Below are positions 5,018-57,380 of a DNA stretch of 64,000 nt, piece by piece. The DNA is from a virus (lineage: Duplodnaviria > Caudoviricetes). Positions within the stretch are counted from its first letter, which is position 1; each line of letters begins with the position of its first letter. The stretch covers positions 64,001 to 128,000 of the IMG/VR virus record IMGVR_UViG_3300031992_000012. One strand, given 5' to 3'. A program made the translations under genes and the position numbers. The notes below the pieces were generated by a model, which saw only the letters and a list, made by a program, of their open reading frames with translations, was not told the DNA's origin and searched no databases.

Positions 5018-6148
5018 ATGACCGAGGAACTTAGGAAAATATTGATTAAGACGGCTGCAGAACCGCAGGAGGAGCCTTTCCGCCCGGCCCTGATAGGCGA
5101 CCCTGTTAAGTTCGCCAAGCAGACCAAGCCGTTCAAGATTAGCGACGCGGCCATATCGGCCGGCGTCTGGATGGCAGGCGCCCTGTTCTGGGGCAAGATG
5201 ATGGAGATATGGAACGGGAAGACCATCGACAACTACTGGGAGCGCACCGACCCTTATGCCGGACTAAAGGACGAGAACGGCAATCCTACCGAGGATTACG
5301 ACAAGGCCAGGTTCCATGACAGGATGGGGAAGATCGCACGTCTTCTGTCGGCGGGCGGAGCCGGTTTCCTGTCCAGTGTCGTTGACCAGGCGATAGGCGG
5401 GCAGCCGTACAACTACATGGGCTACAAGGTTCCTACAACGCCCAAGGACATAGTGATAGCTTTCACGGGCGCGGGCTCCGGCGCGCACCGCGCAAGGAAA
5501 GGCCGTGAGCACGACATGGACGTAGCCGACCTTGACAGCCGTTATGGAAAGGGCCGCTACGCCCTGTTCAACCACAAGCATCTCAGGGAGGCCCAGGAGT
5601 TTCTCATGAACCTTCCGCCCGGATGCCGTATAAGAATCCAGGGACACTCGTATGGCGGCTCATCGGCATGGAAGCTGGCGCAGTTCGCCAGCGATAACGG
5701 CATTCCAATAGACCGTCTCGACACCTTGGACCCAATCGGAATGTCCCCCGAAATGCAGTTCAAAGGCAAACCTGAGCTGGTAAAGACATGGGAGAACCAT
5801 CTCCCCAAGAAGCGCCGGCTATGGTACTGGCCTGACTTCCTCGCCACAATTGGCCATGTCCGTCGTGAACTCAAGGGGGCGGACAACAAGATTTACACGG
5901 AGCCGCAGTACAACGATCATAGCGGAATCCGTCTTGTCGACTTCGCGGGCGACAAGAAGCGCAATCTCCAATATGACATGAACGCCGACCACCCGTTAAG
6001 CGCGTTCACCGAGGAAGGGCTTCTTACCAAGACCGCTTCGGACTGGAAGAACTGGTACAGGGAGCGTAAAGCTGCCGTCAACACAGACGCCAAGGATTAC
6101 GCAAGCTCCTCTTTCCGTGCACTTGTAGGAAAGTTGACGGGTATATAG
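5018..6148 (+). CDS. alpha/beta-hydrolase fold protein (putative virion cargo)
   Basis: GHSYGG nucleophile elbow, TLDP acid motif, later His (DHSG); KTAA near the N-terminus and KTAS near the C-terminus. Confidence 0.75.
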   Translation: MTEELRKILIKTAAEPQEEPFRPALIGDPVKFAKQTKPFKISDAAISAGVWMAGALFWGKMMEIWNGKTIDNYWERTDPYAGLKDENGNPTEDYDKARFHDRMGKIARLLSAGGAGFLSSVVDQAIGGQPYNYMGYKVPTTPKDIVIAFTGAGSGAHRARKGREHDMDVADLDSRYGKGRYALFNHKHLREAQEFLMNLPPGCRIRIQGHSYGGSSAWKLAQFASDNGIPIDRLDTLDPIGMSPEMQFKGKPELVKTWENHLPKKRRLWYWPDFLATIGHVRRELKGADNKIYTEPQYNDHSGIRLVDFAGDKKRNLQYDMNADHPLSAFTEEGLLTKTASDWKNWYRERKAAVNTDAKDYASSSFRALVGKLTGI

Positions 6149-6176
6149 CACGACGTTCAAATAATAAGGAAACAAT

Positions 6177-6761
6177 ATGAACTGGAATGACATCAAGGCG
6201 ATTGCCAAGCGTGGCATCGCGCAGAAGAAAGCAACGGAAGAGAAGATTGAACGCACCAACGAGCTGATGACGAAGTACGCCGTAGCCAAGCAGGCCAGCG
6301 ACACGGTCGACCTTATGAAGCGCACCGCCGAGATGCTGCGGGGCAAGATGCCGGCGCCAAAGCTGGGCAGCGACCCCTGTCTCCGCTCCCTGCGTCGCAA
6401 GCTCATAGCGGCCAAGCACGCCAACGACGGCTCCGACAGTTTCCAACGCGTTGGAAAATTGATACATGGGTTTATCAAAAGAGACCCGCTTGCCCGCATC
6501 GCCAAGATAGCGGCCGACCGCGATGAACGGCTTGAGAAGGCCAAGTACAAGGAGGAGCAGGCGAAGACGGTCACCGAGGAAACCCGCAAGGGACAGCCCG
6601 AAAAACCCACCACGGCCCCGATGGAAGGTCAGCCGCATGACGGCGAAGGCCGTGAGGTAACTTTTGGCGACGGTCGCACAGTCACTTTCAAGAGCGCCTC
6701 CGAACGTCAGCAATGGCTCGCCAACAAGGTAAAGGAAGCATACAAGAGGGCCGGGATGTGA
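6177..6761 (+). CDS. K-x-A motif helical protein (putative internal head protein)
   Basis: MNWNDIKAIAK start; KQAS, KIAA and KSAS motifs. Confidence 0.7.
   Translation: MNWNDIKAIAKRGIAQKKATEEKIERTNELMTKYAVAKQASDTVDLMKRTAEMLRGKMPAPKLGSDPCLRSLRRKLIAAKHANDGSDSFQRVGKLIHGFIKRDPLARIAKIAADRDERLEKAKYKEEQAKTVTEETRKGQPEKPTTAPMEGQPHDGEGREVTFGDGRTVTFKSASERQQWLANKVKEAYKRAGM
6440..6457. repeat. dispersed palindrome, copy 1
   Basis: TTTCCAACGCGTTGGAAA inside a CDS. Confidence 0.85.
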
Positions 6762-7465
6762 TTGACTGGGTCGGCGTAAAGCAGGCGGCCGACCCGCTCT
6801 GGAACCCTGAGCCCAACGTCCCGCCTGTATACAACAAATGGGTTCCTCGCCCCGCTTCCGGTTTTCACACGTTCGGAAGAGGCGACAATCTTATGGGGAT
6901 AGCCGACAGGTACGGTGTCTCTCATCGTCGTCTCGCTCTTGCCAATCCAACGCTTAGCCCGAACTCCATAAGGGAGGGTACCCGTGTAAACATTCCGATG
7001 AATGAGAGGGAATGGCTGATGAAGACTAAGGGCTTCGACCCGGAGGCCGTGTCCGCTCTTCCGGCAAATTTCGCAAAGGCCGTGCGGATGCAGGAGTCGC
7101 AGGACGGAAAGTACCTACGTCCGTTCGGCAACGCGTCGTCGGCCAGGGGCATCTACCAGATGCTGCGTGACAGGTTCAACATAACCAAGTCGCGCCACCC
7201 CGAGATGAAGACGTGGAACCACGACGACCTGCTCACCGACAACAGGAAGGCACAGCAGGCCTTCGACTGGACGATAAAGGACAACATGCGCCGTTACAAC
7301 TACCTCAACGGGACACCAATGCCGGTCAACATGATGATCCGCTCCTGGCACCAGCCAGGCAACTTGTACAACCAACGCGCAATCGACTACGAGAAAGCCG
7401 TAATGAAGCAGATGGAGCTTATCCTGCAGGCGGCGCAGAACAACCAGGTCACCAAGCTCAAATAG
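6758..7465 (+). CDS. LysM-domain lytic transglycosylase/lysozyme-like protein with MIDW leader
   Basis: GTG start VIDWVGVKQAA; LysM (GDNLMGIADRYGVS..LALANP..IREGTRVNIP); QES..SSARGIYQM lysozyme-family motif. Confidence 0.8.
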   Translation: MIDWVGVKQAADPLWNPEPNVPPVYNKWVPRPASGFHTFGRGDNLMGIADRYGVSHRRLALANPTLSPNSIREGTRVNIPMNEREWLMKTKGFDPEAVSALPANFAKAVRMQESQDGKYLRPFGNASSARGIYQMLRDRFNITKSRHPEMKTWNHDDLLTDNRKAQQAFDWTIKDNMRRYNYLNGTPMPVNMMIRSWHQPGNLYNQRAIDYEKAVMKQMELILQAAQNNQVTKLK

Positions 7466-7528
7466 CTAAAAAAGAACCTGCTTCGAGTAATAATATTGTA
7501 GGAGGCAAGTTAGCAGCTTCCCTCCTGC
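7465..7528 (+). promoter_or_regulatory. putative phage promoter motif plus GTTA-loop hairpin
   Basis: GCTAAAAAA..GTAATAAT followed by GGAGG-CAAGTTAGCAGCTT-CCTCC; similar elements at four other loci. Confidence 0.55.
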
Positions 7529-7572
7529 GTCATGGCGGTACCCTTTGTGCTGCCGCCATTAAAGGTTTTACT

Positions 7573-17214: not shown

Positions 17215-17673
17215 ATGACGAACAAAGAGATTATGGCGGCCTACCGCTGTGCATACAAGATGGCCGGCGACGGCTATGAAAACCAAGCCCCAGCCCCGCC
17301 GGTCGAACAGCCTGTCCAAGCGCCTGCGCCTGTACCGGCAAAGCGCCCTAGCCTTGTCAACGGCATCGGCCGTGCAATCCGCTGGGGCCAGGCGGCCCGT
17401 GGCGTCTACGACAACGCCCTTACGCCCGAACAGCGCGCGGCCCTTGTCCAGGCGGGGCAGTCCGCCGCCGCAGCCGCCCAGAACGGTGTCAACAGAGTCG
17501 CCAACCCCGACCGTCACGCGGCGGGCCAGGCCGGTGTCAACGCCGCCAACGGTATACTGAACAAGCTTGACCGGCATAACCAGGGACTCCGTAACGGTAC
17601 TGTCGCGCCCGCCCCTGCCGTCCCCGCGCCCAACAAGGCGCAGGTGACAGTGCAGAAGCCGCGCGGTAACTGA
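17215..17673 (+). CDS. Ala/Gln/Pro-rich protein with AYKxA leader (putative internal head protein)
   Basis: MTNKEIMAAYRCAYKMAG leader shared with 18964 and 57177. Confidence 0.75.
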   Translation: MTNKEIMAAYRCAYKMAGDGYENQAPAPPVEQPVQAPAPVPAKRPSLVNGIGRAIRWGQAARGVYDNALTPEQRAALVQAGQSAAAAAQNGVNRVANPDRHAAGQAGVNAANGILNKLDRHNQGLRNGTVAPAPAVPAPNKAQVTVQKPRGN

Positions 17674-17692: not shown

Positions 17693-18967
17693 ATGCCGAA
17701 ACGCAAAGGACAGGTGATGCACGGGGGAAGCCCGTTCCTCGCGTATCTGGGCTCCTTCTTCAAGCACGACACATGGGACCACTACTGGGATATGCGAAAG
17801 GCGATTCCCAAGGGTCTAGCGTCGGGCGCCAACATATACGGGCAGTCCGCCCTGGGCTTCTGGAAGGGGCAGAACGACGCCATTCTCAGAAACAAATACG
17901 CCCGGAAGGCGGAGGAGAGGCTGGGGCGAATCCTGACATCGAACCCCGGCTACAAGCCCCACGTTCTTGATGAGCTAGCCGACGACAACAGCAGGCGGTA
18001 CGACAGTTGGTCGGACTGGCTCTCCAGGGCGCACACCGACGCCCAGAAGTACTGGGGCGAGTACAAGTACAGGCGGGAGCCCGGCGAGAGCTGGTTCAAG
18101 GCGCTGACGTCGGCCCCTGGACAGGCGCTGCACCAGGCGATAGGATACGGCAGCCCGCTTCTTGTGCACTCAGCAGCGACCGGAGGCGCACCCACGGCGG
18201 CAGGCGCGTTGAGCGCGCTGCGGCCCGGGCTGGGCGGCGCATGGAAGACACTAAGCGGAATGGCCAAGATAGGAAAGACATTCCCCGCCATAGACAGGCT
18301 TACGGGACTGACGCATGTGCAGCCAGGCGACGGCCCGGTAAAGGCAGGTTTTAAGAGATGGGCCGGAAGACTCGTCCCGCCGCTTGTGTCCGCCGACCCG
18401 CTAGTGTCCGCCCGCGACATTGTCAGCCGCCACCCCGACCTGTACAACGGGAAGGTGGAGGGCCTTGCAAGAGGCGCCGTCGAGATGATGCCATATACAA
18501 GCAGCCCGGCCGGCCCTGTGGCCGACACCGCCGTGGAGCTCGCCGACAACGTGGAGGGAGCGGCCCAATCCTACGGCCCCAGGCTGTGGCGGTCGGCGAA
18601 GGGCTTCTGGGAGGCTTTCAAGAACGACAACGCCGACCAGGGCGCCCAGATACTCCGCAATGTCGCGGAAGGCCAGGAGCTCCGCGATGCCATGGACAAC
18701 ACGAGGACTAACAACATCCTCACCCTTACCGGCGGCCAGACCGTGAACAGCTATCCTTTCAACACAAGGGTGGCCCGTCACATTTTCGGCCCGGTCAACC
18801 CGAACAAGGCGGCAGCCCGTGGCGCGTGGAAGGCCACCCGGGGAAACCCCGACGTATTCCCGAGCTGGCTGGGCATAGGCGACCGTAATAGAAGCACGGC
18901 GTCGAAGCTTCCGCCACGCCCGGTCAATACGATAGCAGACAACCAACCAAACACCGCACAACCATGA
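17693..18967 (+). CDS. Ala/Gly-rich protein, putative virion protein
   Basis: 424-aa ORF flanked by leader-bearing genes. Confidence 0.7.
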   Translation: MPKRKGQVMHGGSPFLAYLGSFFKHDTWDHYWDMRKAIPKGLASGANIYGQSALGFWKGQNDAILRNKYARKAEERLGRILTSNPGYKPHVLDELADDNSRRYDSWSDWLSRAHTDAQKYWGEYKYRREPGESWFKALTSAPGQALHQAIGYGSPLLVHSAATGGAPTAAGALSALRPGLGGAWKTLSGMAKIGKTFPAIDRLTGLTHVQPGDGPVKAGFKRWAGRLVPPLVSADPLVSARDIVSRHPDLYNGKVEGLARGAVEMMPYTSSPAGPVADTAVELADNVEGAAQSYGPRLWRSAKGFWEAFKNDNADQGAQILRNVAEGQELRDAMDNTRTNNILTLTGGQTVNSYPFNTRVARHIFGPVNPNKAAARGAWKATRGNPDVFPSWLGIGDRNRSTASKLPPRPVNTIADNQPNTAQP

Positions 18968-26215: not shown

Positions 26216-26392
26216 ATGACCCACCCAAACCGCAACAGTGTGAAGGCAAGCGTTCACCCCGGCTTCTGGTGCTGGGGCTGCGACGCCGCTATTGTTTCGG
26301 CGGGAAGGAAATGCCCCGTCTGCGGCACAAGAAATTACAACGCGTTGAAAAATCGTCTAAGCGTGTCCGACATAAGGAGAATAAAGGAATGA
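26216..26392 (+). CDS. 58-aa zinc-ribbon protein (absent from the ORF track)
   Basis: Translated by hand: MTHPNRN..GFWCWGCDAAIVSAGRKCPVCG..; ATGA-coupled to the next gene. Confidence 0.7.
   Translation: MTHPNRNSVKASVHPGFWCWGCDAAIVSAGRKCPVCGTRNYNALKNRLSVSDIRRIKE
26335..26352. repeat. dispersed palindrome, copy 3
   Basis: TTACAACGCGTTGAAAAA inside a CDS. Confidence 0.75.
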
Positions 26393-44348: not shown

Positions 44349-46415
44349 ATGGCTACTGAACCTTTTGAACAAAAATTTGGCATTCTCGCGGACAGCACGC
44401 TCAACGCCAAGCTGCCGGAGATGAAGACTTTCGCTATCGGCTTCCAGGTCGTAGACACGGAGGACGAGAACAGCCGGGCCTTTGGCGTCCAGCTCTACAA
44501 CATAGGCAAACACCTCGTAATGGTCCCCATGTTCTGGCTCAAGGGCAAGGTCAAGGGCGGCGAGGTCATGTACGTAAAGGACCTGAACCGTTTCCTCCCG
44601 TTCACCGAGGTCGACGTGAACAACCTAAAGACGGGCAAGACCTTCAGCATGGGCGACCCCGAGCCGGAAGGCGACAAGAAGAGCAAGGGCGACGCGTACA
44701 GCGTCTCCACGATGGAGCTCAACTGGCTCAATACCAAACGGGCAGGCGAAGTCACGCTGATCGACAAGCGCGACATCGCGCAGATGCTAGCCCATACAGG
44801 CGAGTACAAGATGCCCGAACTGAAGGACATCAGGATGTTCGGCCCCAAGGCCGCCGCCGACTTCACGCAGACCATGAAGGACCATCCGGAGTTCACGAAT
44901 ACCCTCATGCGTTTCCACACGCCGGAGGAAATAGCGGACGCCGTGATGCCTGGGCTGCGCAACGGCGCCCTTATAGAGAAGACGGCCTCGATAAAGCCGA
45001 AGACCGCACTCTACTTCGTGGACGACCCCTTCTGCAAGGAGGCCAAGGAGCTTCCTATGGAGCTCAAGCAGCTCCTCATGCGGGAAGGCATAGTGGCCGT
45101 GGACTCCCGTAAGGAGGCTTCAATCGCTCTCAAGGAGAAGAAGGCCGTAACTCGCTATGCGAACCCGACGTCGTCCGGCAAGTACAAGCTTGTAGGCTAT
45201 GACGGGACGCTCAAGGACGCAGAAATTATCGTCTTCAACGGGAAGGCCCCGGGATGCGAGGAAGTCCCGTGTTGCTGCGCCGCCGACACGCCGCTCATGC
45301 CCGGAAAGGCCCTCGTGGTCATGGACGGGAGGGCTAGCTACGCCAAGCCATCCCAGCTTACCGTCGACACCGAGGACGTTAAGGATGCCGACCTGGGCAA
45401 GTCCGTCACTGTCGAGGGAATACGTTCCAGCCTTGCCAAGCCAGACGGCGAATGGCAGAGGGACGTCTTTGAGCAGAAAGGCAACGTCGTGTTCTACGAC
45501 AAGTCGCATGATACGGCCTACTGCGGTGAATTAAGGACGGAAGGCGCAGAAATCGTCTTCCGTACAGGCTGGGACCAGCCAACGCTTCGGCTTGTCCTTA
45601 CAGGAAAGCCGGGAACGCTCTTCATCGAGGCCGGTGTCATGTACATACCCTCGACTGCGAAGATGATTGACCTTAGCTCATACAAGCGCAACGACCAGCG
45701 AGAGTTCAAGAGCGTCCAGAGCGCGGTGTCCGACACGCTCGTCCGTGGCGGGTTCGAGACCGTGAAGGTCGCCTCCGACGGTTCGCTGTGGCGCATCGCC
45801 GACAGCAAGGGCGGAAAGGACATGGTCGGATACAACGACAGCTTCCGCTACCTGGTGTCGGAGGTGGGTCTTCGAGCCAAGCAGGCCGCCGAGATTCTCG
45901 CCGACGCAAAGGCCGACAGCAAGTTCGGTCGTTTCGGCGACGGTGTCTCGTTCTGGGTCAAGCGCGCTTCGTTCGACCCGGCGGACGACCCATGGAGGGG
46001 CATCGGCAACGACATCTACGAAACGCGCGAGGCCGGTCTCAAGCTGAGCGGGCCGCTGGACGACAAGGCGCTCAAGCGCATAGAAGACGCCAGCAAGACA
46101 GACGTCAAGGAACTTTTCGACACACAGGTCATGACCGAGCTCGCAAAGAGCGCGTACAGCGTGGACAAGGTGCAGGAATACCTGCCTTACATGGCCCGCG
46201 CCCTCGACCGCGTCTGCCGCACGCTCATCATGTTCTATTGGCATAACGAGGACTTCGAGGAACGCTACGGAAAACAGAACATCCCGCAGCTCGAGGACTC
46301 CCTCAAGGACAATATCCAGTCGCTCGGCGGTCTTATCAGCTACCTGAAGGACAAGACGGTAAAGGACGACGACATGGAAGAGGATGAAGACGAACTCTCG
46401 GAGGAGATGGCATAA
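44349..46415 (+). CDS. large K-x-A-rich virion/head-core protein
   Basis: 688 aa in the head module; KRAG, KTAS, KEAS, KVAS, KQAA, KRAS. Confidence 0.7.
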   Translation: MATEPFEQKFGILADSTLNAKLPEMKTFAIGFQVVDTEDENSRAFGVQLYNIGKHLVMVPMFWLKGKVKGGEVMYVKDLNRFLPFTEVDVNNLKTGKTFSMGDPEPEGDKKSKGDAYSVSTMELNWLNTKRAGEVTLIDKRDIAQMLAHTGEYKMPELKDIRMFGPKAAADFTQTMKDHPEFTNTLMRFHTPEEIADAVMPGLRNGALIEKTASIKPKTALYFVDDPFCKEAKELPMELKQLLMREGIVAVDSRKEASIALKEKKAVTRYANPTSSGKYKLVGYDGTLKDAEIIVFNGKAPGCEEVPCCCAADTPLMPGKALVVMDGRASYAKPSQLTVDTEDVKDADLGKSVTVEGIRSSLAKPDGEWQRDVFEQKGNVVFYDKSHDTAYCGELRTEGAEIVFRTGWDQPTLRLVLTGKPGTLFIEAGVMYIPSTAKMIDLSSYKRNDQREFKSVQSAVSDTLVRGGFETVKVASDGSLWRIADSKGGKDMVGYNDSFRYLVSEVGLRAKQAAEILADAKADSKFGRFGDGVSFWVKRASFDPADDPWRGIGNDIYETREAGLKLSGPLDDKALKRIEDASKTDVKELFDTQVMTELAKSAYSVDKVQEYLPYMARALDRVCRTLIMFYWHNEDFEERYGKQNIPQLEDSLKDNIQSLGGLISYLKDKTVKDDDMEEDEDELSEEMA

Positions 46416-46939
46416 TGAACGAACTTAAGCAAAAACTCCATGAAAAGCTTCTGGCGAAGAAGCAGGCCGGCCTCGGGGGGGATGCCTCGGAGGGCATCAA
46501 CGCCCCGCTGTCCCGTATGAGCGACGGCCGTTACAACATGGCCGGCGCGGCTCTCATGGGTGGTGGAACCGGTCTTGCAACCTACCTGATCAGCCGTCTG
46601 TTCGGACTCAAGAACGGCCCGAGCATCGTGGCTGCGCTGCTGGGCGGCCTCGGCGGAATCCACTATTCAATGGGCAAGCAGTACGCCAACGGCGGCGTAT
46701 ACAGCCCCATGAACTTCGACTGGTTCAACGACGCCTACAAAAGATGGCAGCAGGCCAAGAAGGGCATTCTGCCAACACCTGAACAGGCTGCACAGACTGC
46801 GCACAATATGGAAGTCGCCAAGAATCAGCGCAGACGTCCGGCCCCCTCTCCAATCCAGCAGCCGGAAACACATATGGCTGAAACAGAAATGAACAGGGAA
46901 GCGCTGAACAGCCGGGCCGAACAAAACGGCCTCCAGTGA
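46415..46939 (+). CDS. glycine-zipper membrane protein with K-x-A leader
   Basis: LLAKKQAG; GAALMGGGTG / ALLGGLGG. Confidence 0.75.
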   Translation: MNELKQKLHEKLLAKKQAGLGGDASEGINAPLSRMSDGRYNMAGAALMGGGTGLATYLISRLFGLKNGPSIVAALLGGLGGIHYSMGKQYANGGVYSPMNFDWFNDAYKRWQQAKKGILPTPEQAAQTAHNMEVAKNQRRRPAPSPIQQPETHMAETEMNREALNSRAEQNGLQ

Positions 46940-47801: not shown

Positions 47802-49897
47802 AGAAGATAAGCCCCATGGCGGAAATGCGGATGGTTGACACAATCCGTGCCGCCCGAGAATCCAGTGGCCGGGGAACGAACCCCAGCGAGGCCGTGGCGA
47901 AACTCGCCATGGAGCAGAACATGTCCACCGAACAGGCGGCCCGCATCTGCGAGGCCTTCAACAAGCTCGCGTCCATAGACCACCTGTCCAGTGATCAAGG
48001 GGACAGGGCGGCCAACTTCCCGCTGGCCGACAGCTCGGCGGTGCGGAAGATTATGCGCGACTCGCTCAAGATCGCCAACGAGCCGTTCAAGTTCCGCCGT
48101 ACGATAAACGACGATTTGCCTTTGCCCAAGATGACGGACAAGCAGGCTATGGAAATGATCTACAAGCCGACCGAGGAAGAGCGGAAGATGCTCGACACGG
48201 CGACAGACCGCATGCAGTATCTCGCGGACTGGGAGAGGATGCAGAGCGGAGTCAAGGCCATGAAGGTCGCCTCGGAGGAGGCGCGTCTCGGCGAGCTGAT
48301 GTTCGGCGAGGCTTTTATCAAGTTCGGGAACAAGGTCGCGTCCATGGATGACAGGGCCGTCGACAACATGGCCCGCTACGCTGTCTACAACTATGGAAAG
48401 GACGGTGTGAATTTTCTAACGGCGTTGGAAAATTTGACAGGCCGTGAGATCGACAAGAGCAGCCGCCCCTGCATGAAGACAGGGAGCGACGCCGAGAACG
48501 AAGTCGACAGGCTCATGTTCATGGCGGACAACGCCAAGGCGCTCAAAGTGGCGGCCGACCTTGTGATCGACGGGAATAAAATACCTTTTGGGTACTCGAT
48601 GTCTATTTACGACCCGAACCTCAATCCAGCGCAAGTAAACCAGGCGTCGAGTGACCTTACAGCTAAAAGAAAGGCTCTACAGAACATAAACTCTAACTAC
48701 GCCTATCAGGTTAACGAGGATTTGGCAGAGAAGCTGGATCGTCCCGACCTTACCGGAGCCGGCTCCGAGGCTGTCAAACAGTGGAATAGCCGGCTGAATA
48801 CTGTTGGGAAGCTAAAGGACACGACGTTTAATGAATCGCAGCGTGACACCGTTGAGGACACTAAGAAGATTCAGAACGCCATAAGCAAGATCAGGGCTGA
48901 GTTTGAGAAAAACGAGCTTGGTACTGTCCAGGACACCCAGCACATCCGTAATGAGATGGGTCATACCCAGGCTCAGCACGACCAGGCCACACAGGCCACT
49001 CGGAACAGCACCGACGCAATCCGTGTCAGCCTTGATAACGCCAGGGCGTTGTTCGACCAGCGGCAACAGCCCGGAAAGCTGATTACGGAAGCTGACAGAA
49101 ACCAGGTCGAAGCGGCCAAGGCCCGTGACGCGGCGGCCGAGCAGAGGGCCATAGACAACGCCCGTGCTACCGGTCGTTTGAGCACCGTCGAGGACAACGC
49201 CCTTAGGACGGAGGAAACAAGAGAGCTGGAGGCAGAGCAGAAATACCAGCATGCCCAGGCCGTCAAGGACTACGAGAACGCCCTTGCCGGTCGAGGGGAT
49301 ACAGAAGCCAAGCGCATGCTGCGCCAGTATGAGCGCGCCGAGGCCGACCGTGCATGGATGGAGGAGGAACGCCTCCGCAAGTCACGCGTCGACAATTTCA
49401 ACAGGCTGAAGGAACAGGGCGACCGCACGTCCAAGGCCCTGCAGGAAATGGCGAACAACACGCTCGCCAACACCAAGAGCGTCCTCAGCGGCGCCGTCGG
49501 CATAATGCAGAAAGCCGACGCGATCCGTCAGGCCCTCACACCGGAACAGCGTTCGGGAAACGCGGCCGCGCGCCCGCTCTCCAACGCGGCCACCAAGTAT
49601 CTTGAGAATCTCCGCCTCCACGACGTCTTCGCAAAGACATACCTTTCCGACCCGTACCTGCACCAGTATTCGCCGTCGGAAGTTGCGGAAGCCTTCAATA
49701 TCGTCTATGAGGTCGCCCCCGAGCTTGTGCGCCACGGGAGCAACCCGCATATAATCGGCGCCCTTATCAGGAAGTACCTCGCCAACACCAACCAGCTTGA
49801 CCCGCTCGAAATCCGCGACCTCACCTCGACAGAGAAGGACCGTGTGGACACGATGCTCAAGCAGGAGCAGCTCGAGGCGATTAAGAGGGGCAAGTAA
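47798..49897 (+). CDS. coiled-coil K-x-A-rich virion/head-core protein
   Basis: ATGA overlap; KLAM, KLAS, KIAN, KVAS x2, KVAA. Confidence 0.7.
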   Translation: MKKISPMAEMRMVDTIRAARESSGRGTNPSEAVAKLAMEQNMSTEQAARICEAFNKLASIDHLSSDQGDRAANFPLADSSAVRKIMRDSLKIANEPFKFRRTINDDLPLPKMTDKQAMEMIYKPTEEERKMLDTATDRMQYLADWERMQSGVKAMKVASEEARLGELMFGEAFIKFGNKVASMDDRAVDNMARYAVYNYGKDGVNFLTALENLTGREIDKSSRPCMKTGSDAENEVDRLMFMADNAKALKVAADLVIDGNKIPFGYSMSIYDPNLNPAQVNQASSDLTAKRKALQNINSNYAYQVNEDLAEKLDRPDLTGAGSEAVKQWNSRLNTVGKLKDTTFNESQRDTVEDTKKIQNAISKIRAEFEKNELGTVQDTQHIRNEMGHTQAQHDQATQATRNSTDAIRVSLDNARALFDQRQQPGKLITEADRNQVEAAKARDAAAEQRAIDNARATGRLSTVEDNALRTEETRELEAEQKYQHAQAVKDYENALAGRGDTEAKRMLRQYERAEADRAWMEEERLRKSRVDNFNRLKEQGDRTSKALQEMANNTLANTKSVLSGAVGIMQKADAIRQALTPEQRSGNAAARPLSNAATKYLENLRLHDVFAKTYLSDPYLHQYSPSEVAEAFNIVYEVAPELVRHGSNPHIIGALIRKYLANTNQLDPLEIRDLTSTEKDRVDTMLKQEQLEAIKRGK
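48412..48434. repeat. dispersed palindrome, variant copy
   Basis: TTTTCTAACGGCGTTGGAAAATT (1-nt insertion, 1 mismatch). Confidence 0.5.
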
Positions 49898-51309
49898 TGA
49901 ACAAGAACTACGCGTATAAATCCCTTCTGCCGGACGACAACAAGACCGAGCCCGCTGTCCTCATCGACAGCAAGGTCCTGCCGGACAAGCTCGCGTCCAA
50001 GTGCGCGTCCGACACGAAGGAGTTCATAAAGGGCATAAAGCCTGACAAGGACCACAGCTACGTCCACCTTATCAGCACAGGCGCCCTGGAGTGGTACGGC
50101 CCCAACAAGCGCGGCGACTCCTTCAACGAGGCCGGCGGCATCTACAAGCCGACCGAGCCTTACTGCAAGGAGGCGTCGGAAGTCGAGCTTGACGGCGGGC
50201 TTACCAAGTACCACAACCCGACCTTCCAGGCCAACGGCAAGGTCTACCGCGAGCACCACAGCATTGTCGAGGACGCGTCCAACAAGCCGCTCGGAGAAGT
50301 GGTGTTCGCCACATACAACCAGCCGATGCACCGTGGCGAGCTTGTTGTAAAGCTCTCCAACGAGGAATGGAAGGACGACCTTGAACGCCTGGCCAAGGGA
50401 AAGCCCTGCTATTACAGCATGGGCTGCCTGACACCGGACGATGTCTGCTCTGTCTGCGGAAAGAGGACAAACCCAAACGACACCAAGAACCGCTGCGAAC
50501 ACCTCAAGGACCATTTGCTCGAGTACACGGACAAGGGCGTCCAGGTGCATGCGATAACCGACCATCCAATCTTCTACGACATCAGCCGTGTCGCGCGTCC
50601 CGCCGACAAGATTGCGTTCTCGCTCGGCAAAGTCGCCTCCGACCGTGGCCCTCTTCCTGTAATCCCGGTAAGGATGGTGGATGGCTCAATGTCCCGCCGC
50701 GCCGACCGCCTCGACCTGATTATGAAAATCGCCGCCGAGGAGAAGACGATGACGGAGCAGGAGAAAGTCCCGGTAGAGGACGTCTCCGAGGAGGACAAGG
50801 AGACAATCAAGAAGCTGAAGGGAAAGGACGGCGGAAAGGTTCTCATCATCCTGCGGAAGCACAACACCATGCTACCCCCGCCCGCTTTCCTTGAACTGCT
50901 GGCAGGCGACGGCAACGTCCCGCATGACGCCCTTCCCTTGATCGGTGAACACCTTGATGGTATCTTTAACTCGTTGTTGAAGGACGGCTCCATCAACGGG
51001 TTTGTTGACGACGGGACGTATGACGGCGACGCAGACGACAGGGAAATAGAAGACATTGTCATGCCCCTTGTCAGACGCTACTCGTTCGATGACGTTCCCT
51101 TCCAGAAGAGAATAATAAGAATCACAATCTGCCCTGGCTCGAAGATAGCCTCCGACAGACGAATGATAGTTACCCCCGGGGCCGACGCGCTTGCCGCCAA
51201 GCTCGCCAGGGAGTATGCCCGTTATCAGTTGTCGTTCCTAACAGAGCATCCGGATCGCCGCACGATAAGGCAGGCCCTATCGGGCAACCACCCGTTCGTG
51301 ATGGCATGA
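49897..51309 (+). CDS. putative prohead maturation protease
   Basis: N..GD.F, YREH, SMGC, CSVCG..C.H, FYDISRV..PAD (HK97/U35-like); located upstream of the scaffold and MCP. Confidence 0.7.
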   Translation: MNKNYAYKSLLPDDNKTEPAVLIDSKVLPDKLASKCASDTKEFIKGIKPDKDHSYVHLISTGALEWYGPNKRGDSFNEAGGIYKPTEPYCKEASEVELDGGLTKYHNPTFQANGKVYREHHSIVEDASNKPLGEVVFATYNQPMHRGELVVKLSNEEWKDDLERLAKGKPCYYSMGCLTPDDVCSVCGKRTNPNDTKNRCEHLKDHLLEYTDKGVQVHAITDHPIFYDISRVARPADKIAFSLGKVASDRGPLPVIPVRMVDGSMSRRADRLDLIMKIAAEEKTMTEQEKVPVEDVSEEDKETIKKLKGKDGGKVLIILRKHNTMLPPPAFLELLAGDGNVPHDALPLIGEHLDGIFNSLLKDGSINGFVDDGTYDGDADDREIEDIVMPLVRRYSFDDVPFQKRIIRITICPGSKIASDRRMIVTPGADALAAKLAREYARYQLSFLTEHPDRRTIRQALSGNHPFVMA

Positions 51310-51405: not shown

Positions 51406-52650
51406 ATGGCAAACAAGACTACTTATCAGGACGCGATGCAATTCGCCATGCAGTTCCTCCAGAACTACGGGGCTGACCCGAAGCTCGCCGAGGACCCCAA
51501 CCGCCCGGCGCTTGTCCCCGATGACATGAAGGAAGGCAAGCCACAGACCGACGAAGTCGACAAGGGCGACGGAAACAAGCAGGAACAGGGTGCCCCCGGC
51601 AAGGAAACAGCCGAGGACGTCGCCAAGATGGAACCCGACGGCGCCAGCGTCGAAGGTGATCGCAAGAACACCGGCGACAGCGCGGAAGGCATCATCAAGA
51701 ACCCGCCCACCGTCTCGACCTCGGAAGAGCCGAAAGACGACATCGACAAGATGGACAATGTCGACCCCGCCTTCAAGAAGGCGTACGCCAGCTACCTCAA
51801 GCTGTCGAACGGAGTCATTGGCCTGATTGACGACACGTTCAACGAAGCCGCTGAAAAGAACGCCTCCGACGACGCCGTCCTCGACGAAATCGTCCAGAGC
51901 GCAATCAACACCAAGGCCCAGCACATCGACTTTCTCGTCCATGAATTCGGCGTCTCGCCGAAGCAGGCGAACGACATGCTGAACCAGTTGGCCGACCAGG
52001 ACCCTACCGCCGTCCTCCCTCCCGAAGCCATCAGCGATGAAGAGGCCGAACAGGTCCTCGCAGACGCCGCTGCCGCCGACGCGGGCGCCCCTGCCCCCGA
52101 AGCCGCTCCTGAAGGCGGCGACGATGTCGACGCCGACATCCAGCAGTTCATTGAAGAGATGCAGGGTCAGGGCTACTCCGATGATGAAATCATGGCAGCC
52201 CTAGAACAGGCCGCCGACATCGTTGGGCAGGAAGAAGGCGGCGCCGCCGCCCCGGAAGGCGAAGTCGCGCCGGAAGCCGCGAAGGCCGCCTCGGACCCTA
52301 CTGAGCCGGGCGCCGCTGAAGTCGGTGGCCCGGGAGAAGCCGAAGCCGCTGCCGCCCCTGCCCCTGAAGCCGCTCCTGAAGGCGGCGACATGGGCAACGT
52401 CGAAGGCGAGCTGAGCGAAATCGTCTCGCAGCTCCAGGACGAAGGCTACAGCCAGGAGGATATCGCGCAGGCCCTCATGGAAGAACTCGACATTTCGCCT
52501 GACGAAATCGTCGACACCGTCATGCAGGACCTCCAGTCCAAAGGCTTCACCGAAGAGGAAGCCGGTGAGTTGCTCTCCAATCTCGGGGAGCTTGAACAGC
52601 AAGGTGTGACACCTGAGCAGTTCGCGCAGGTCATCGACCAGCTCCAGTAA
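51406..52650 (+). CDS. acidic scaffold-like protein
   Basis: Very Asp/Glu/Ala-rich; duplicated APAPEAAPEGGD; lies between the protease and MCP. Confidence 0.65.
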   Translation: MANKTTYQDAMQFAMQFLQNYGADPKLAEDPNRPALVPDDMKEGKPQTDEVDKGDGNKQEQGAPGKETAEDVAKMEPDGASVEGDRKNTGDSAEGIIKNPPTVSTSEEPKDDIDKMDNVDPAFKKAYASYLKLSNGVIGLIDDTFNEAAEKNASDDAVLDEIVQSAINTKAQHIDFLVHEFGVSPKQANDMLNQLADQDPTAVLPPEAISDEEAEQVLADAAAADAGAPAPEAAPEGGDDVDADIQQFIEEMQGQGYSDDEIMAALEQAADIVGQEEGGAAAPEGEVAPEAAKAASDPTEPGAAEVGGPGEAEAAAAPAPEAAPEGGDMGNVEGELSEIVSQLQDEGYSQEDIAQALMEELDISPDEIVDTVMQDLQSKGFTEEEAGELLSNLGELEQQGVTPEQFAQVIDQLQ

Positions 52651-52662: not shown

Positions 52663-53058
52663 ATGCCCGACATCGCAAAACTGTCTGCACTTTCGTTGCA
52701 GGCCCTCAAGGCAGCCGAAGAGGTCCGCCTCTTGCAGTCGAGCAAGATCGCCAGCCAGGAGGCGGAGATCAACCGTCTCCGCTCCCAGCAGCAAGGCGCG
52801 GAGCAATTCCGCGCCCTTGTGGCAAAACTTGCCTCCGTCGGAGTTGTAGACCGCCTCAACGCAGTGTATTTTGATAAAAACGTTACCGACGAGAACGTGA
52901 CCGAGTTCATCACAAAACTTGCGAGCGCCGTCGATACGCCCAAGCAGAAGACAACCGTGTCACCCTACGAAGTGACGGGAGTCACGGAACAGAGTACCAA
53001 CAGGGACCAGGCAGCCGGTGACTGCGAGCGCAAGCTCCGCGACATCGTAGGCCGATAG
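52663..53058 (+). CDS. small coiled-coil head-assembly protein
   Basis: GGAGG RBS; KIAS, KLAS x2. Confidence 0.7.
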   Translation: MPDIAKLSALSLQALKAAEEVRLLQSSKIASQEAEINRLRSQQQGAEQFRALVAKLASVGVVDRLNAVYFDKNVTDENVTEFITKLASAVDTPKQKTTVSPYEVTGVTEQSTNRDQAAGDCERKLRDIVGR

Positions 53059-53867: not shown

Positions 53868-54896
53868 ATGAGTATTGTTGACCCCAACATCAGAGAAAGC
53901 AACGCCGTCCTTATCGAAGGTCTGCGCAATGAAGCGACACGCAAGGAAGCGGCCGACACCGTCCGCGATTATTTGCGTATTCGTAACCGTGAAGACGGCA
54001 TGGTTGGCAAAATCCTGCCGCGTACGAATATCACCTCCGCCCAGCTCGACCGCCAGGTCGACACCCCCGACCCCGTGGTCGTGAACGACATCGAAGCCGA
54101 CAGCTCCGGCGCCGACGTCGTGGCGTTTGGTACTGGCCCCAAGACCGTCATGATCGACGCCGGTCGTTATGCCGTCGTCTTCAAGCGTATTGAGTCGCGC
54201 CGGTATCAACAGGACGTCAACCGCATGCTGACGTGGAACATGGACATCAAGCAGCAGCTCAAGGACTTCCTCCTGAAGGATATCCAGTACGCTGAAGACG
54301 CCGGTTTCATCGCGGCCTGCAACAGCATCGTCGGCGAAGTCAACACCGTCAACGAGAACGTCGAAAGCTGCCTCTGGACAACCCAGGGCCCGCTGGACCG
54401 TGTCTCCTTCTCCAACGCCCGCAAGGGTCTCCAGGCGACCAACCGTCACCTGCGCTCCACAATCGGTCTGATGAACGACCTCACGGTCTGGGACATCCCG
54501 AAGCTGAACCGCAACGAAATCGGTGGCGACCTTGCTGAAAAGCTGTTCACCGACGGCAACATCATGACCAACGTCATGGGCCTGAACCTGGTTGTCACCA
54601 TCAAGAACGAGCTGGTTGCCGACAACGACCTCTGGCAGTTCGCCAACCCGGAATACCTGGGTGACTTCCTCGTCCTGGACGACATCATCCTCTCTACCGA
54701 GAACATCAACTTCTGGATTGAGTTCTTCGGCTATGAAACCATCGGTATGGCCATCAAGAACATCGCGGCCCTGTGCCGTACATCGTTCACCGGCACCGCC
54801 ACCAACTGGCGTACCGGCGCTCCGGACGGCAACGCCCGTAGCTACTACACCATCCCGAATACCCCGGCGGAAGACGCCAGCAGCTCGGGTAACTGA
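53868..54896 (+). CDS. major capsid protein
   Basis: 342 aa; IR.REDG...KILP and DIQ..ED..F motifs; strong codon bias; position in the head module. Confidence 0.75.
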   Translation: MSIVDPNIRESNAVLIEGLRNEATRKEAADTVRDYLRIRNREDGMVGKILPRTNITSAQLDRQVDTPDPVVVNDIEADSSGADVVAFGTGPKTVMIDAGRYAVVFKRIESRRYQQDVNRMLTWNMDIKQQLKDFLLKDIQYAEDAGFIAACNSIVGEVNTVNENVESCLWTTQGPLDRVSFSNARKGLQATNRHLRSTIGLMNDLTVWDIPKLNRNEIGGDLAEKLFTDGNIMTNVMGLNLVVTIKNELVADNDLWQFANPEYLGDFLVLDDIILSTENINFWIEFFGYETIGMAIKNIAALCRTSFTGTATNWRTGAPDGNARSYYTIPNTPAEDASSSGN

Positions 54897-55616: not shown

Positions 55617-55625
55617 GGAGACCAC

Positions 55626-55940: not shown

Positions 55941-55941
55941 C

Positions 55942-56361
55942 GTGACGTCAAGGGATGTCCTGAAAGAAAGGTTCAGGCTCCTTCTGGGTGAGGCGGCCGC
56001 CGGTGTAGGTGAATCAATGCACCGGGTGGTCGCCGCTTCGTATTCCCTGGGAGTGAAGTACTCCATTCCGGAGGCGATCGAATTTTTCAACGCGTTGGAA
56101 GATCCGACCAAGGTCCCGGGGTGGCTGGACTATCTCCCCGAAGAAGTGGAGTGCGAGTTCCCGGTAAGGGAGAAATGCTTCGACTGTTTTTATGTAAGAC
56201 TGTGCGCGGCCAGCGCGGCCGAAGGCGTGACAAGGGAGGCTCTGCTGATGGACGCCTACGAGTACATGCCCGAGGATTTCCACACCAAGCCTGAGTGGGG
56301 TATCGGTCTTCTTATGGATGCAGCCGATTCGTACAGGGAGCTAAAGGATTTGGAAGCATGA
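55942..56361 (+). CDS. hypothetical protein
   Basis: GTG start after GGAGG. Confidence 0.65.
   Translation: MTSRDVLKERFRLLLGEAAAGVGESMHRVVAASYSLGVKYSIPEAIEFFNALEDPTKVPGWLDYLPEEVECEFPVREKCFDCFYVRLCAASAAEGVTREALLMDAYEYMPEDFHTKPEWGIGLLMDAADSYRELKDLEA
56083..56102. repeat. dispersed palindrome, copy 5
   Basis: TTTTTCAACGCGTTGGAAGA inside a CDS. Confidence 0.75.
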
Positions 56362-57167
56362 TTTTCGACACCGTCTTTTCAAGCACAGCCGAGTCTACCT
56401 CCCTCCCTGTGATAACAGGGCTGGAAGGAGCCAAGAGGGAATGGAACATAACACTGCGCATGGACGCCGGCGAGTCCTCCCTCCCTTATGACCTGTCCGA
56501 CATATGGAAGGTCAAGTTCATATGCAAGACTTCGCCGGAGGACCGTCGCATAGCCATTGAGAAGGACTGCGAGATAATCAACCCGAAAGCAGGCGTAGTC
56601 CGTCTCATGCTGGAGCCGAAGGACATGAAGCGCTCCGGCTTGTGGTGGGGCGCTATACAGCTTTTCGACAATGACAAGGTTCTTGTCGAGCAGTTCAAAT
56701 GCTGGCTGCTCGTCAGGCAGACGATAGACGGCACAAGCAAGCACAAGACGCTTACCGTCCCGGAAGTCAGGGCGTTCCTGTTCGACAGGTGCGCCGAGGA
56801 CAACCGCCTGCTGGCCTCCACGCAGTTCACCGATGACGAGATAATGGAGGCCATGAAGAATCCCGTCGACGAGTGGAATTCCACTCCGCCCTCGGTATGC
56901 TGCTTCACCACCGTCAACTTCCCCTGGCGACTTCCCTGGATGAAGGGGACAGCCGCCTACCTGCTCAAAAGCCTGGCCATCCAGCAGATTCGCAACAACG
57001 CCACCTACCAGACAGGCACGGTCAGCGTGAACGACAGCGACAAGGGGCAGGCCTTCCTTCAGATAGGGGAAATGCTTTACAAGGAATGGCGCGACTGGCT
57101 AATGGCCAAGAAGCGCGAAATAAACATCGACATGGGCTGGGGTCACGCAGCCTGGGCCGACTTCTAA
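56358..57167 (+). CDS. putative head-tail adaptor (neck) protein
   Basis: N-terminal Ig/BppU-like beta domain; VR.FL.D..EDN.LL..FTD.EI..WN..PP; position. Confidence 0.6.
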   Translation: MIFDTVFSSTAESTSLPVITGLEGAKREWNITLRMDAGESSLPYDLSDIWKVKFICKTSPEDRRIAIEKDCEIINPKAGVVRLMLEPKDMKRSGLWWGAIQLFDNDKVLVEQFKCWLLVRQTIDGTSKHKTLTVPEVRAFLFDRCAEDNRLLASTQFTDDEIMEAMKNPVDEWNSTPPSVCCFTTVNFPWRLPWMKGTAAYLLKSLAIQQIRNNATYQTGTVSVNDSDKGQAFLQIGEMLYKEWRDWLMAKKREINIDMGWGHAAWADF

Positions 57168-57176
57168 GGAGTTACA

Positions 57177-57380
57177 ATGAAGAACATCGACATCTTTAAG
57201 AGCTACCTGTACGCATACAAGCAGGCTTCCGAAGCCGAGTGCTGCGGTCCTCAGACGACTAGCAAGGCCAACGAAAAACCGGTCGACTGGCGCGAACGCG
57301 TCCGTCGCGGAGTCATGAAAGGACTTGGCAAGGCCAAGCAGACCGTCGGAAAAGGAACTGACGCCGTAAAAGGCAAGTAA
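57177..57380 (+). CDS. small protein with AYKxA leader
   Basis: MKNIDIFKSYLYAYKQAS. Confidence 0.7.
   Translation: MKNIDIFKSYLYAYKQASEAECCGPQTTSKANEKPVDWRERVRRGVMKGLGKAKQTVGKGTDAVKGK

Follow-up and report, generated by a model that had tools for sequence, protein, structure and literature searches.

Bacteriophage T4 loads unrelated proteins into its head by means of capsid-targeting sequences of 10-19 residues that are afterwards removed by the protease gp21, and these sequences have been described as an evolutionary device to load varied proteins (PMC9026906). In the phages SPN3US and phiKZ a gp21-type protease (gp245 and gp175, respectively) removes the N-terminal propeptides of many head and ejection proteins and also cuts itself (PMC10052503). 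The herpesvirus assemblins cut after alanine (for example YLQA-T and VQA-S) at two places, a release site that follows the protease domain and a maturation site close to the C-terminal end (PMC4498786). Here we describe an uncultured phage of the Caudoviricetes (IMGVR_UViG_3300031992_000012; genome of 205,081 bp, ~205 kb) in which the tags found on unrelated enzymes are most likely head-loading signals that are cut off like those of T4, although written in a different code. The window analysed is the 64,000-nt stretch at positions 64,001-128,000 of the record; coordinates refer to the window and genes are named by their start in it (Table 1). The relatives compared (P0002, P0003, L119, L122, L130, L154 and L156) come from public assemblies.

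Table 1. Leader-bearing and head-module genes of the window; a slash marks the predicted cut
Feature	Coordinates	Strand	Leader or motif	Remarks
Looser-leader protein	5018..6148	+	IKTA/A (aa 11-13)	second K-F-A at aa 32-34
Looser-leader protein	6177..6761	+	QKKA/T (aa 17-19)	
Class-1 gene	6758..7465	+	VIDWVGVKQA (6758-6787)	GTG start overlaps upstream stop; LysM (Pfam E = 1.8e-6) and probable GH23/SLT-like lysozyme domain
Class-2 gene	17215..17673	+	MTNKEIMAAYRCAYKMA (17215-17265)	
Class-2 gene	18964..19539	+	MTNQEIMEAYRLAYKQA	
Class-1 gene	26389..26958	+	MIDWIAVKEA (26389-26418)	glycine-zipper (membrane-type) body
Class-1 gene	26968..27876	+	MIDWTAVKKA	~170-aa domain and GNAT acetyltransferase
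Class-1 gene	27873..28448	+	MIDWIAVKQA	GNAT acetyltransferase, paralogue of 26968
Class-1 gene	36641..37237	+	MIDWIAVKEA	
First head-module gene	40122..40721	+	SSKVA/FAPQG (aa 19-21)	Pro-, Met- and Gly-rich body
Glycine-zipper-type protein	40721..41533	+	MGMDFYKKEA/	glycine-zipper match weak
RNA polymerase beta' C-terminal fragment	41538..43829	+		inserted Hint/intein domain; within head module
Small protein	43833..44348	+	...AAMKKA/DGLD (aa 17-19)	compared with close relatives only
Gly-rich membrane-type protein	46415..46939	+	...LAKKQA/GLGG (aa 16-18)	
Putative prohead protease	49897..51309	+		gp21/assemblin-fold domain (aa ~38-235) fused to helical C-terminal domain
Acidic helical scaffold-like protein	51406..52650	+	GADPKLA/EDPNRP (aa 26-28)	
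Small head-module protein	52663..53058	+	SSKIA/SQE (aa 28-30)	
Major capsid protein, HK97-type	53868..54896	+	TRKEA/AD (K26, A28)	342 aa; phrog_2522
Class-2 gene	57177..57380	+	MKNIDIFKSYLYAYKQA	67-aa protein within structural module

Two interchangeable classes of leader

Both classes of leader stand at ORF starts in the places given by the original prediction. In a six-frame translation of the whole genome the class-1 pattern [MV]IDW..VK.A has five copies, each at a gene start, and the relaxed pattern [A-Z]IDW..[VIL]K.. returned the same five places only, all on the plus strand and all at gene starts; class 2, M.N..I...Y..AYK.A, has three copies at gene starts in the genome. It had been proposed that the peptide rather than the DNA is conserved, and the pairwise codon differences, 39 synonymous against 23 non-synonymous, agree with this. 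Nucleotide identity is 0.74 inside the 30-nt leader and ~0.3 in the 30 nt flanking it on each side, so that the likeness between leader genes ends at the leader codons, which themselves vary at synonymous sites. Hence, the leaders are selected at the peptide level. The bodies, also as predicted, are largely unrelated: BLASTP of the leaderless proteins links the two GNATs only, and Pfam gives LysM, the two GNATs and a weak glycine zipper (in 26389; Gly-zipper_YMGG at E = 0.0012, which falls short of the Pfam cutoff). Protein 6758 had been called a LysM-transglycosylase. The LysM part stood (fold probability 1.0), while the transglycosylase part is a tentative assignment from weak fold matches to GH23 chitinase and Slt and from an E-S...G-x-Y-Q signature, whose E113-S114 and G-x-Y-Q are invariant. 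Five orthologues of this protein retain M-I-[DNV]-W..[IVL]K.A with ADP[IL]W after it, the remaining leader residues being variable; the orthologues of 27873 begin with MIDWLAVKQA in L119 and MINWLAVKQA in L122.

The leaders are modular. The P0003 orthologue of 36641 retains the class-1 leader at 100% over a body that is 43% identical; in the P0002 orthologue, with a 70% identical body, the class-1 leader is swapped for a class-2 leader, MNVDLYIYAYKKA, joined exactly at K-x-A/SLPKGY and followed by the same SLPKGYTGG continuation as in 36641. A 2-kb contig of a relative (L122) contains four leader genes in succession, both classes being present. In L154, whose protease is 56% identical, at least five genes with unrelated bodies begin with a class-2 leader (QFELYRLAYK.A / NLYMFAYKKA). 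One of them encodes a glycine-zipper protein, whereas the one described here (26389) bears class 1. The orthologue of 57177 in L130 begins with MNDRELLDVYVNAYKQA/GDT, and its body has diverged downstream of K-x-A. A tag that can be swapped, as had been anticipated, is therefore seen in orthologues that bear a leader of the other class, with the junction at K-x-A.

A functionless origin of the leaders, by chance or as remnants of duplication or recombination, is scarcely credible. Its starting point might be fragments of the GH25 muramidase motif (IDW..VK.AG), and a metagenome scan with the leader DNA pattern gave GH25-type internal matches, such as GIDISRWQG-MIDWQAVKSAG; moreover, the two GNATs are paralogous. 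This origin is nevertheless refuted by the placement of the leader in the genome (five copies in exact register, each opening a gene, and none elsewhere in 205 kb), by its retention while the body falls to 43% identity, by its presence on four unrelated body families and by the conservation of the peptide despite synonymous divergence. The GH25 continuation (G.dF.iiKatEG) is absent as well.

Lys-x-Ala in the head module

A K.A within the first 45 residues was found in 10 of 13 head-module proteins versus 26 of 199 other genes, in a head-module count that leaves out the eight strong leaders, and K-x-A ranks first among 400 a-x-b patterns in head-module N-termini (Fisher p = 1.2e-6; ~5e-4 after correction). 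Over the genome as a whole, the bare K.A with its last residue at positions 8-32 shows no enrichment (30/219 genes, ~27 expected), and the mature regions of the head proteins are not depleted in K-x-A (51 copies observed, 39 expected). Since the motif is short, occurs at chance level in N-termini genome-wide and is undepleted in mature head proteins, context must decide which sites are used. The looser K-x-A leaders of the original prediction are present as described and enriched in the head module, but elsewhere the motif is an unreliable flag. Protein 6177, absent from that prediction, has an L156 orthologue with SKQA/N in the same place, and the L156 orthologue of 5018 retains IKSA/ and DPLKMA/.

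In the head module, every orthologue of 40122 seen has the motif (ARKQA/FAP, ASKQA/FAP, VSKEA/FVP), and the L130 orthologue of 40721 has MEYVKKVA/ETPP, while that of 46415 has a different leader, ending in FTKGA/DGYN. The scaffold-like protein retains K-x-A/ED in 4/4 orthologues at 39-52% identity, and the small protein 52663 has K-[IV]-A/S in 4/4. The capsid protein matches the PDB 6wkk capsid protein (E = 9e-15); its family yielded 615 representative homologues, and over the 83 used to count N-arm conservation (27-57% identity) K26 and A28 are each kept in 74. A [VLIM]-R-E at residues 40-42 is highly conserved too; it conforms to the [LI]-x-E rule of the T4 type and may be the real cut site of the capsid protein. 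The head module of the distant cultured relative Arash contains TKQA/A, TKQA/S, VKEA/G and VKVA/S, and no such K-x-A was found in the 12 proteins examined of its tail/baseplate module. The RNA polymerase beta' fragment (41538) has no N-terminal K-x-A. The phage possesses phiKZ-type multisubunit RNA polymerase genes, and in the Arash virion RNA polymerase beta and beta' rank among the most abundant proteins (PMC10585845).

The putative prohead protease

ORF 49897 had been put forward as the protease of the leader system, and a gp21/assemblin fold was indeed found, a likeness at the level of the fold. Its structure matches T4 gp21 (5jbl_A) with a VIA Z of 9.6 (rmsd 3.4, 143 aligned), the next matches being twenty herpesvirus protease entries with Z of 5-7.5. 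Conserved K-x-A/S motifs stand at residues 35-37, 245-247 and 416-418, in or beside low-confidence linkers (pLDDT <50 at 9-33, 236-265 and 409-421). The first two are kept in at least 93% of homologues (K35 and K245 in 40/43, A37 and A247 in 41/43) and the third, K416/A418, in ~55-63%; K-x-A/[SAG] at about residues 30-47 occurs in 68/69 homologues of the family. Its presence on capsid protein, scaffold and head protease ties the motif to head maturation. K-x-A, kept in the capsid protein, the scaffold-like proteins and the linkers of the protease, thus behaves like a maturation cleavage motif, as predicted, and is the best candidate for the cleavage code of the head protease.

Alternatively, the leaders could be docking or assembly tags that stay on the mature protein. 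K-x-A and the preceding residues would then form a short helix for binding to a partner in the head, portal or membrane, and the K-x-A of the capsid N-arm would be a structural contact instead of a cut site. A short helix is predicted at residues 4-11 of the LysM-protein leader, and the residues ahead of K-x-A are moderately conserved in the capsid family. Some head-module proteins of Arash are listed with 100% coverage in its virion proteome (116 proteins listed in the preparation), which would mean that their N-terminal segments are still present if the coverage values, which look unreliable in that table, could be relied upon. An uncleaved tag is unlikely, however: a docking helix is implausible in the disordered linkers at the borders of the protease domain, where K-x-A is conserved; leaders that differ widely in sequence and length have just K-x-A in common; and a fixed Lys and Ala with variable middle and post-Ala residues is a typical protease subsite code.

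In some Gram-positive phages it is a host protease that trims the N-termini of capsid and scaffold proteins, as Prp does for Staphylococcus phage 80alpha. This precedent counts for a reading in which a protease of the host, or yet another one, processes the leaders, or in which they direct proteins not to the prohead but elsewhere, for instance to the cell envelope or to a phage compartment inside the cell, and so do the LysM and glycine-zipper cargo acting at the envelope and the phiKZ-type RNA polymerase genes. We regard it as quite improbable, because the leaders have neither a hydrophobic core nor a lipobox Cys, the phage's head protease bears the same motif, as do its capsid and scaffold proteins, and leaders were never seen in a relative without the protease family.

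Proposed mechanism

The leaders are probably N-terminal propeptides of a head-loading system. As the Lys-x-Ala of the tags recurs in the capsid protein, scaffold and head protease, the tags are most likely removable head-loading signals; the location of 17215, 18964 and 6758, which are surrounded by small genes at a great distance from the head module, counts against this reading. Lys-x-Ala, with Ser, Ala or Gly as the usual next residue, would mark the substrates of the gp21/assemblin-fold protease. It stands at about 10-45 residues from the N-terminus in the capsid and scaffold-like proteins and in several more proteins of the head module, and also within the inter-domain linkers of the protease itself. 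The putative accessory cargo, including the LysM/lysozyme-like protein, glycine-zipper membrane-type proteins and the two GNAT acetyltransferases, bears class 1 (M-I-D-W-x-x-V-K-x-A) or class 2 (M-x-N-x-x-I-x-x-x-Y-x-x-A-Y-K-x-A), both ending in the mark. By analogy with T4, the leader residues ahead of K-x-A most likely serve to dock each protein to the core of the assembling prohead; the protease would then cut the leader off, probably after Ala, freeing the cargo inside the head, from which it could exit together with the DNA and so be injected. The swappable head-loading tag of the original prediction is supported, every computationally testable part of it having come out as predicted.

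Comparison with known systems

The cargo-loading peptides of encapsulins are also short and transferable and direct unrelated enzymes into an HK97-fold shell, but they are usually C-terminal and uncleaved, and no protease is involved. The T7 core/ejection proteins gp14-gp16 are stored in the capsid and exit with the DNA, and include proteins that insert into membranes as well as a lytic transglycosylase domain, a set that the glycine-zipper and LysM/lysozyme-like cargo resembles; however, they are not known to carry a shared leader that is cleaved off, nor is T7 known to possess a prohead protease.

The relation to the herpesvirus assemblins (protease-scaffold precursors of the pUL26 type) does not go beyond the fold, at 8-16% identity. 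The layout of assemblin-fold domain, linker and helical scaffold-like part is similar, with one conserved candidate site just past the protease domain of ORF 49897 and another ~50 residues from its C-terminus; Ala would occupy P1 here as it does there, the herpesvirus P1' being usually Ser or Thr. In contrast, P3 would be Lys here and is Val/Leu there, and herpesviruses have no N-terminal cargo tags. The phage, which belongs to a non-T4 jumbo-phage clade, has Ala at the predicted cut as herpesviruses do. It resembles phiKZ and SPN3US in being a jumbo phage with a virion-associated multisubunit RNA polymerase and a gp21-type protease, but SPN3US uses A-x-E, which puts Glu at P1, in place of K-x-A, and its propeptides are mostly long (111-254 residues), with no short tag shared by unrelated proteins.

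From T4 the phage differs in its motif (K-x-A, by prediction cut behind the Ala, versus [LI]-x-E), in leader sequences that are unrelated to MKTYQEFIAE and come in two interchangeable classes, in a small HK97-type capsid protein of a different family and in the multisubunit RNA polymerase genes of its head module. Nevertheless, as with the T4 capsid-targeting sequences (IPI-III, Alt), a short N-terminal leader is borne by unrelated proteins, which in T4 are dispensable; a host-modifying enzyme is among the cargo (Alt in T4 and, here, the GNATs); the two proteases agree in fold; and the last residues of the leader form the motif at which, here by prediction, the head protease cuts the capsid and scaffold proteins.

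Leader peptides on unrelated proteins

The two leader classes, [MV]IDW..VK.A (class 1, five genes) and M.N..I...Y..AYK.A (class 2, three genes), stand each at the start of an open reading frame and exactly at the positions originally predicted, and a scan of the whole genome in any frame showed that the pattern IDW..[VIL]K is absent elsewhere. Pairwise codon comparison of the leaders gave 39 synonymous and 23 non-synonymous differences, bearing out the predicted divergence of the leader DNA at synonymous sites. Nucleotide identity is 0.74 within the 30-nt leader and drops to about 0.3 directly on both sides. As the codon changes are mostly synonymous and identity falls at the leader edges, it is the peptide that is conserved, and the similarity does not belong to any longer duplicated stretch. 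The synonymous changes also rule out an mRNA-level element as the cause of the similarity. Simple paralogy is ruled out as well, since BLASTP of the proteins deprived of their leaders found similarity between the two GNATs alone. The bodies, which belong to at least six unrelated families over both classes, are indeed largely unrelated. Among the leader proteins Pfam recognized LysM and two GNATs, with a weak match to a glycine zipper, and gave no match for the C-terminal domain of the LysM protein or for the remaining cargo bodies. That C-terminal domain shows an invariant E-S and a G-x-Y-Q motif, and it matches GH23/Slt folds weakly.

A Sec, Tat or lipoprotein signal peptide would display a hydrophobic core of at least 10 residues and A-x-A or a lipobox Cys; the 10-residue leaders contain neither a hydrophobic stretch nor a Cys. 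The remnant of a GH25 muramidase, in which IDW..VK..G leads into the strand.dF.iiKatEG, is likewise rejected, the continuation being missing in five of five proteins, where Pfam finds no GH25 domain.

Leader exchange among relatives

The search with the protein of the class-1 gene w36641 returned three homologues. One is 96% identical, and a second has a body just 43% identical with the leader MIDWIAVKEA unaltered. The third, P0002, has a body 70% identical and the N-terminus MNVDLYIYAYKKA, a class-2 leader, followed by SLPKGYTGG as in the window protein. Sharing SLPKGYTGG right after a leader of the other class indicates a leader swap exactly at K-x-A. The 2-kb contig bearing P0002 carries four leader genes in a row, a GNAT with MINWLAVKQA and three M..D.YIYAYKKA proteins. 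On L154, an ENA scaffold whose protease is 56% identical, at least five genes with unrelated bodies start with QFELYRLAYK.A or NLYMFAYKKA leaders; one of them codes for a glycine-zipper protein (Pfam), whereas the glycine-zipper protein of the window bears a class-1 leader. Five LysM-protein orthologues retain M-I-[DNV]-W-x-x-[IVL]-(x)-K-x-A with ADP[IL]W after it; one LysM orthologue has a longer leader, still ending in W-A-A-I-K-K-A. The swappable tag of the original prediction is thus found exchanged in nature, on orthologues and at the K-x-A junction, and the two classes can therefore be regarded as interchangeable address labels with K-x-A as their common end.

Two further genes of L154, coding for a SNF2-type helicase that starts MTLLSSKTA/A (the slash marks a predicted cut) and for a LigD_N-domain protein, are found between class-2 leader genes, immediately ahead of the head module. 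On another relative's contig, L156, genes of the isochorismatase, NAD-synthase and NAPRTase families immediately precede the orthologues of the three K-x-A genes w5018, w6177 and w6758, and a Thg1-family gene is next.

Genome setting

The source record of the window is a 205,081-bp IMG/VR virus, with a completeness estimate of 94% and nearly all genes on the + strand. Its cultured relatives are distant only: Salmonella phage Arash, whose capsid protein is 28% identical to that of the window, three Vibrio phages and a Moorella phage. Megablast of 20 kb of sequence against cultured phages gave no match. Within IMG/VR there were zero matches to the leader's exact DNA pattern, isolated chance matches to a looser pattern, all in prophage-like contigs of 40 kb, and no close relatives of the capsid protein. 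The degenerate leader pattern had 21 matches in JGI metagenomes against about 16 expected by a rough estimate, all of them chance or an internal GH25 motif; hence, the class-1 leader is found solely in Logan/ENA assemblies, via protein searches.

The window also holds a palindrome of 22-24 nt, (A)TTTTnCAACGCGTTGnAAAAT, with 14 sites genome-wide, spaced about every 12-18 kb over the 205-kb genome. Eight copies occupy intergenic gaps and the remainder lie within ORFs; the first MIDW leader gene is preceded by a copy at a distance of 49 nt, and the first head-module gene by one at 29 nt. The element could serve as a late promoter or operator, or else as a structural site in the DNA. Another intergenic motif, gcGTAATAAT(n)ATT, has 12 sites genome-wide, mainly in the left arm and upstream of small genes, and may be an early or middle promoter. 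About nine small proteins have in common the C2H2-like zinc-finger motif Y.C..CGK.F........HE..C, the rest of their sequence being variable. The RNA polymerase beta' fragment has orthologues of 625-626 aa on two relatives' contigs (L124, L128), which lack the Hint/intein domain.

Features of the window and of relatives' contigs (window positions unless a contig is named)
Feature	Position	Remarks
Class-1 leader genes	6758, 26389, 26968, 27873, 36641	gene starts
Class-2 leader genes	17215, 18964, 57177	gene starts
Capsid protein	53868-54896	head module; weak phrog_2522 match; 615 representative homologues; PDB capsid 6wkk, E = 9e-15
Cement-like protein		head module
Scaffold-like protein		head module; acidic, helical
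ORF 49897	49897-51309 (+)	head module; 470 aa
RNA polymerase beta' C-terminal fragment	41538-43829	head module; Hint/intein domain inside (Pfam Hom_end_hint, Hint, Intein_splicing)
688-aa protein	44349-46415	head module
Palindrome (A)TTTTnCAACGCGTTGnAAAAT	6446, 10627, 26340, 40093, 56090, 62877	
Motif gcGTAATAAT(n)ATT	7487, 15957, 19556	
Zinc-finger-motif family	12562-13071, 14425-14811, 15194-15586, 19662-20556, 22020-22415, 23020-23433, 35721-36134	
SNF2-type helicase	L154:4742-6202	
LigD_N-domain protein	L154:6771-8072	
w5018/w6177/w6758 orthologue trio	L156:1210-3828	

K-x-A in the head module

Bare K-x-A is at chance level in N-termini genome-wide, with no enrichment. The looser K-x-A leaders of the original prediction therefore count because they are conserved in orthologues and lie in the context of the head module, and not by virtue of the tripeptide as such. 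In a comparison of the N-terminal 45 residues, with the eight strong leader proteins left out, K-x-A was the most enriched of 400 a-x-b patterns in the head module, being present in 10 of 13 head-module proteins and in 26 of 199 other genes (Fisher p = 1.2e-6). In the capsid alignment (83 homologues, 27-57% identity) K26 and A28 are each found in 74 sequences, the middle residue is variable and the residue after Ala is mainly A, Q or S. Conserved sites also occur in the scaffold-like protein (K-x-A/ED, 4/4 orthologues), the w52663 protein (K-[IV]-A/S, 4/4) and the w40122 protein (K-x-A/F[AV]P, 6/6), with surrounding leader residues that differ. The head module of Arash presents TKQA/A in the protease homologue, VKEA/G in the capsid protein, TKQA/S and VKVA/S, and none of the 12 proteins of its tail/baseplate module has K-x-A. 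Judging from this conservation, K-x-A is the putative head-maturation mark.

A test for avoidance of stray cutting found no depletion of K-x-A in mature head proteins, where it is if anything over-represented (51 vs 39 expected). The capsid family has moreover a highly conserved [VLIM]-R-E at residues 40-42, which fits the T4 rule; an x-E rule suits neither the leaders nor the sites in the protease and the scaffold, however. A cut at capsid residue 28 is favoured, because residues 29-50 are better conserved than residues 1-25. The coverage values from mass spectrometry of Arash virions are too coarse, and apparently unreliable, for judging removal of the N-terminus.

The 688-aa head-module protein contains 13 K-x-A motifs, against 5 expected by composition, and may be an internal protein that is processed at several sites. 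The counterpart in Arash, gp218, is abundant in virions.

The ORF 49897 protease

The AlphaFold model of ORF 49897, built from 43 sequences (mean pLDDT 79.6), comprises a beta-rich domain (residues 38-235) and, towards the C-terminus, a helical part, with low-confidence segments at 9-33, 236-265 and 409-421. Upon VIA re-alignment T4 gp21 (5jbl_A) ranked first, with Z 9.6 and an rmsd of 3.4 Å over 143/165 residues, followed by twenty herpesvirus protease entries (VZV, PrV, HSV, KSHV, HCMV and EBV; Z 4.7-7.5) matching model residues ~50-247. The gp21/assemblin match came from this re-alignment only: Foldseek alone gave nothing significant with the model, and the sequence profile found no meaningful match in the PDB. 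The sequence matches phrog_18299, a head maturation protease, weakly. The modelled fold agrees with the proposal that ORF 49897 is the prohead protease of the head module.

In this family, K-x-A followed by S, A or G occurs at about residues 30-47, before the conserved core, in 68 of the 69 homologues, the most distant of which are 28% identical. The 43-sequence alignment shows K35 and A37 conserved at 93-95%, K245-V-A247-S equally conserved, and a third site, K416-x-A418-S, in about 60% of the sequences. These three K-x-A/S motifs lie in or beside the three flexible segments, that is, before the domain, just after it and ~50 residues from the C-terminus. H106, H120, S174, H202 and S230 are invariant in the alignment and may supply a Ser-His-His catalytic triad of the assemblin type. 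Invariance of C184, C187, C200 and H202 within the 184-202 region of the protease domain looks like a zinc site, which to our knowledge is not a feature of gp21 or assemblin.

Proposed mechanism and significance

Leader peptides, leader swapping, motif conservation and the fold of the protease are what the analysis demonstrates; from them we infer, as the most likely route, docking, K-x-A cleavage and injection. Leader-bearing proteins would be synthesized as precursors, and the residues before K-x-A (I-D-W, or the Y..AY helix) would dock them onto the assembling prohead core. The ORF 49897 protease would cut the leaders at K-x-A, probably after Ala, and would cut itself, the capsid protein and the scaffold in the same way. 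The freed cargo proteins would remain in the head and exit with the DNA. A cargo of the LysM protein, glycine-zipper membrane-type proteins and two acetyltransferases is coherent with head loading. RNA polymerase genes sit within the head module; in Arash virion preparations the RNA polymerase subunits and the helicase adjoining RNAP beta' are abundant (PMC10585845).

The chances seem to us about even that a virion-RNAP jumbo-phage clade, distantly related to Arash, combines a gp21-type protease, a herpesvirus-like K-x-A/S specificity and protease-linker-scaffold layout, and two interchangeable capsid address tags for any enzyme. Were it so, acetyltransferases, a cell-wall hydrolase and membrane-inserting proteins would be delivered with the DNA, a second and independent capsid-targeting language would exist beside that of T4, and phage and herpesvirus maturation chemistry would possibly be linked. 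The novelty lies in a non-T4 jumbo-phage clade as bearer of the leader system, in two leader classes that are naturally interchangeable, in a different predicted code (Lys at P3 and Ala at P1 of the putative cut) and in a protease-scaffold layout nearer to herpesviruses. The capsid-targeting tags of T4 let foreign proteins be packaged and delivered into cells, and experimental knowledge of such tags comes, as far as we know, almost solely from that phage. The existence of a second system would mark the loading of protein cargo as a general, evolvable phage strategy, would allow the injected proteome of uncultured relatives to be predicted from a sequence rule and would supply a new 10-residue tag for engineering. 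An Ala-specific protease-plus-scaffold architecture would also bear on how head maturation in phages relates to that in herpesviruses. Candidate host-takeover or anti-defence effectors are found in the predicted cargo, which comprises two GNATs, a LysM/lysozyme-like enzyme, glycine-zipper proteins and a number of further proteins.

Comparison with known systems

The guiding principle of the leader system is that of T4's capsid-targeting sequence (CTS). As in T4-type cargo systems, a short N-terminal leader is borne by unrelated bodies, and the motif at the leader end, here K-x-A, recurs as a mark in the protease, the capsid protein and the scaffold. The system differs from the T4 CTS/gp21 family proper, in which a MKTYQEFIAE-like CTS goes with the cleavage motif [LI]-x-E (PMC9026906), whereas the leaders described here end in K-[EQKM]-A, the Glu position being variable. 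The A-x-E (S/A/G-x-E) motif of phiKZ/SPN3US gp175/gp245 substrates, A-x-E being that of SPN3US gp245 (PMC10052503), does not fit the sites described here either. The gp21-fold phage proteases of known specificity cut after glutamate (T4 gp21, PMC9026906; SPN3US gp245, PMC10052503). The ORF 49897 model also has the fold of herpesvirus assemblin. The herpesvirus precursor is cut after alanine at two places, a release site that follows the protease and a maturation site close to the C-terminus, e.g. YLQA-T and VQA-S (PMC4498786). The K-x-A/S sites of ORF 49897 at 245-248 and 416-419, in low-pLDDT linkers, are putative cuts that would give the layout of the herpesvirus precursor.
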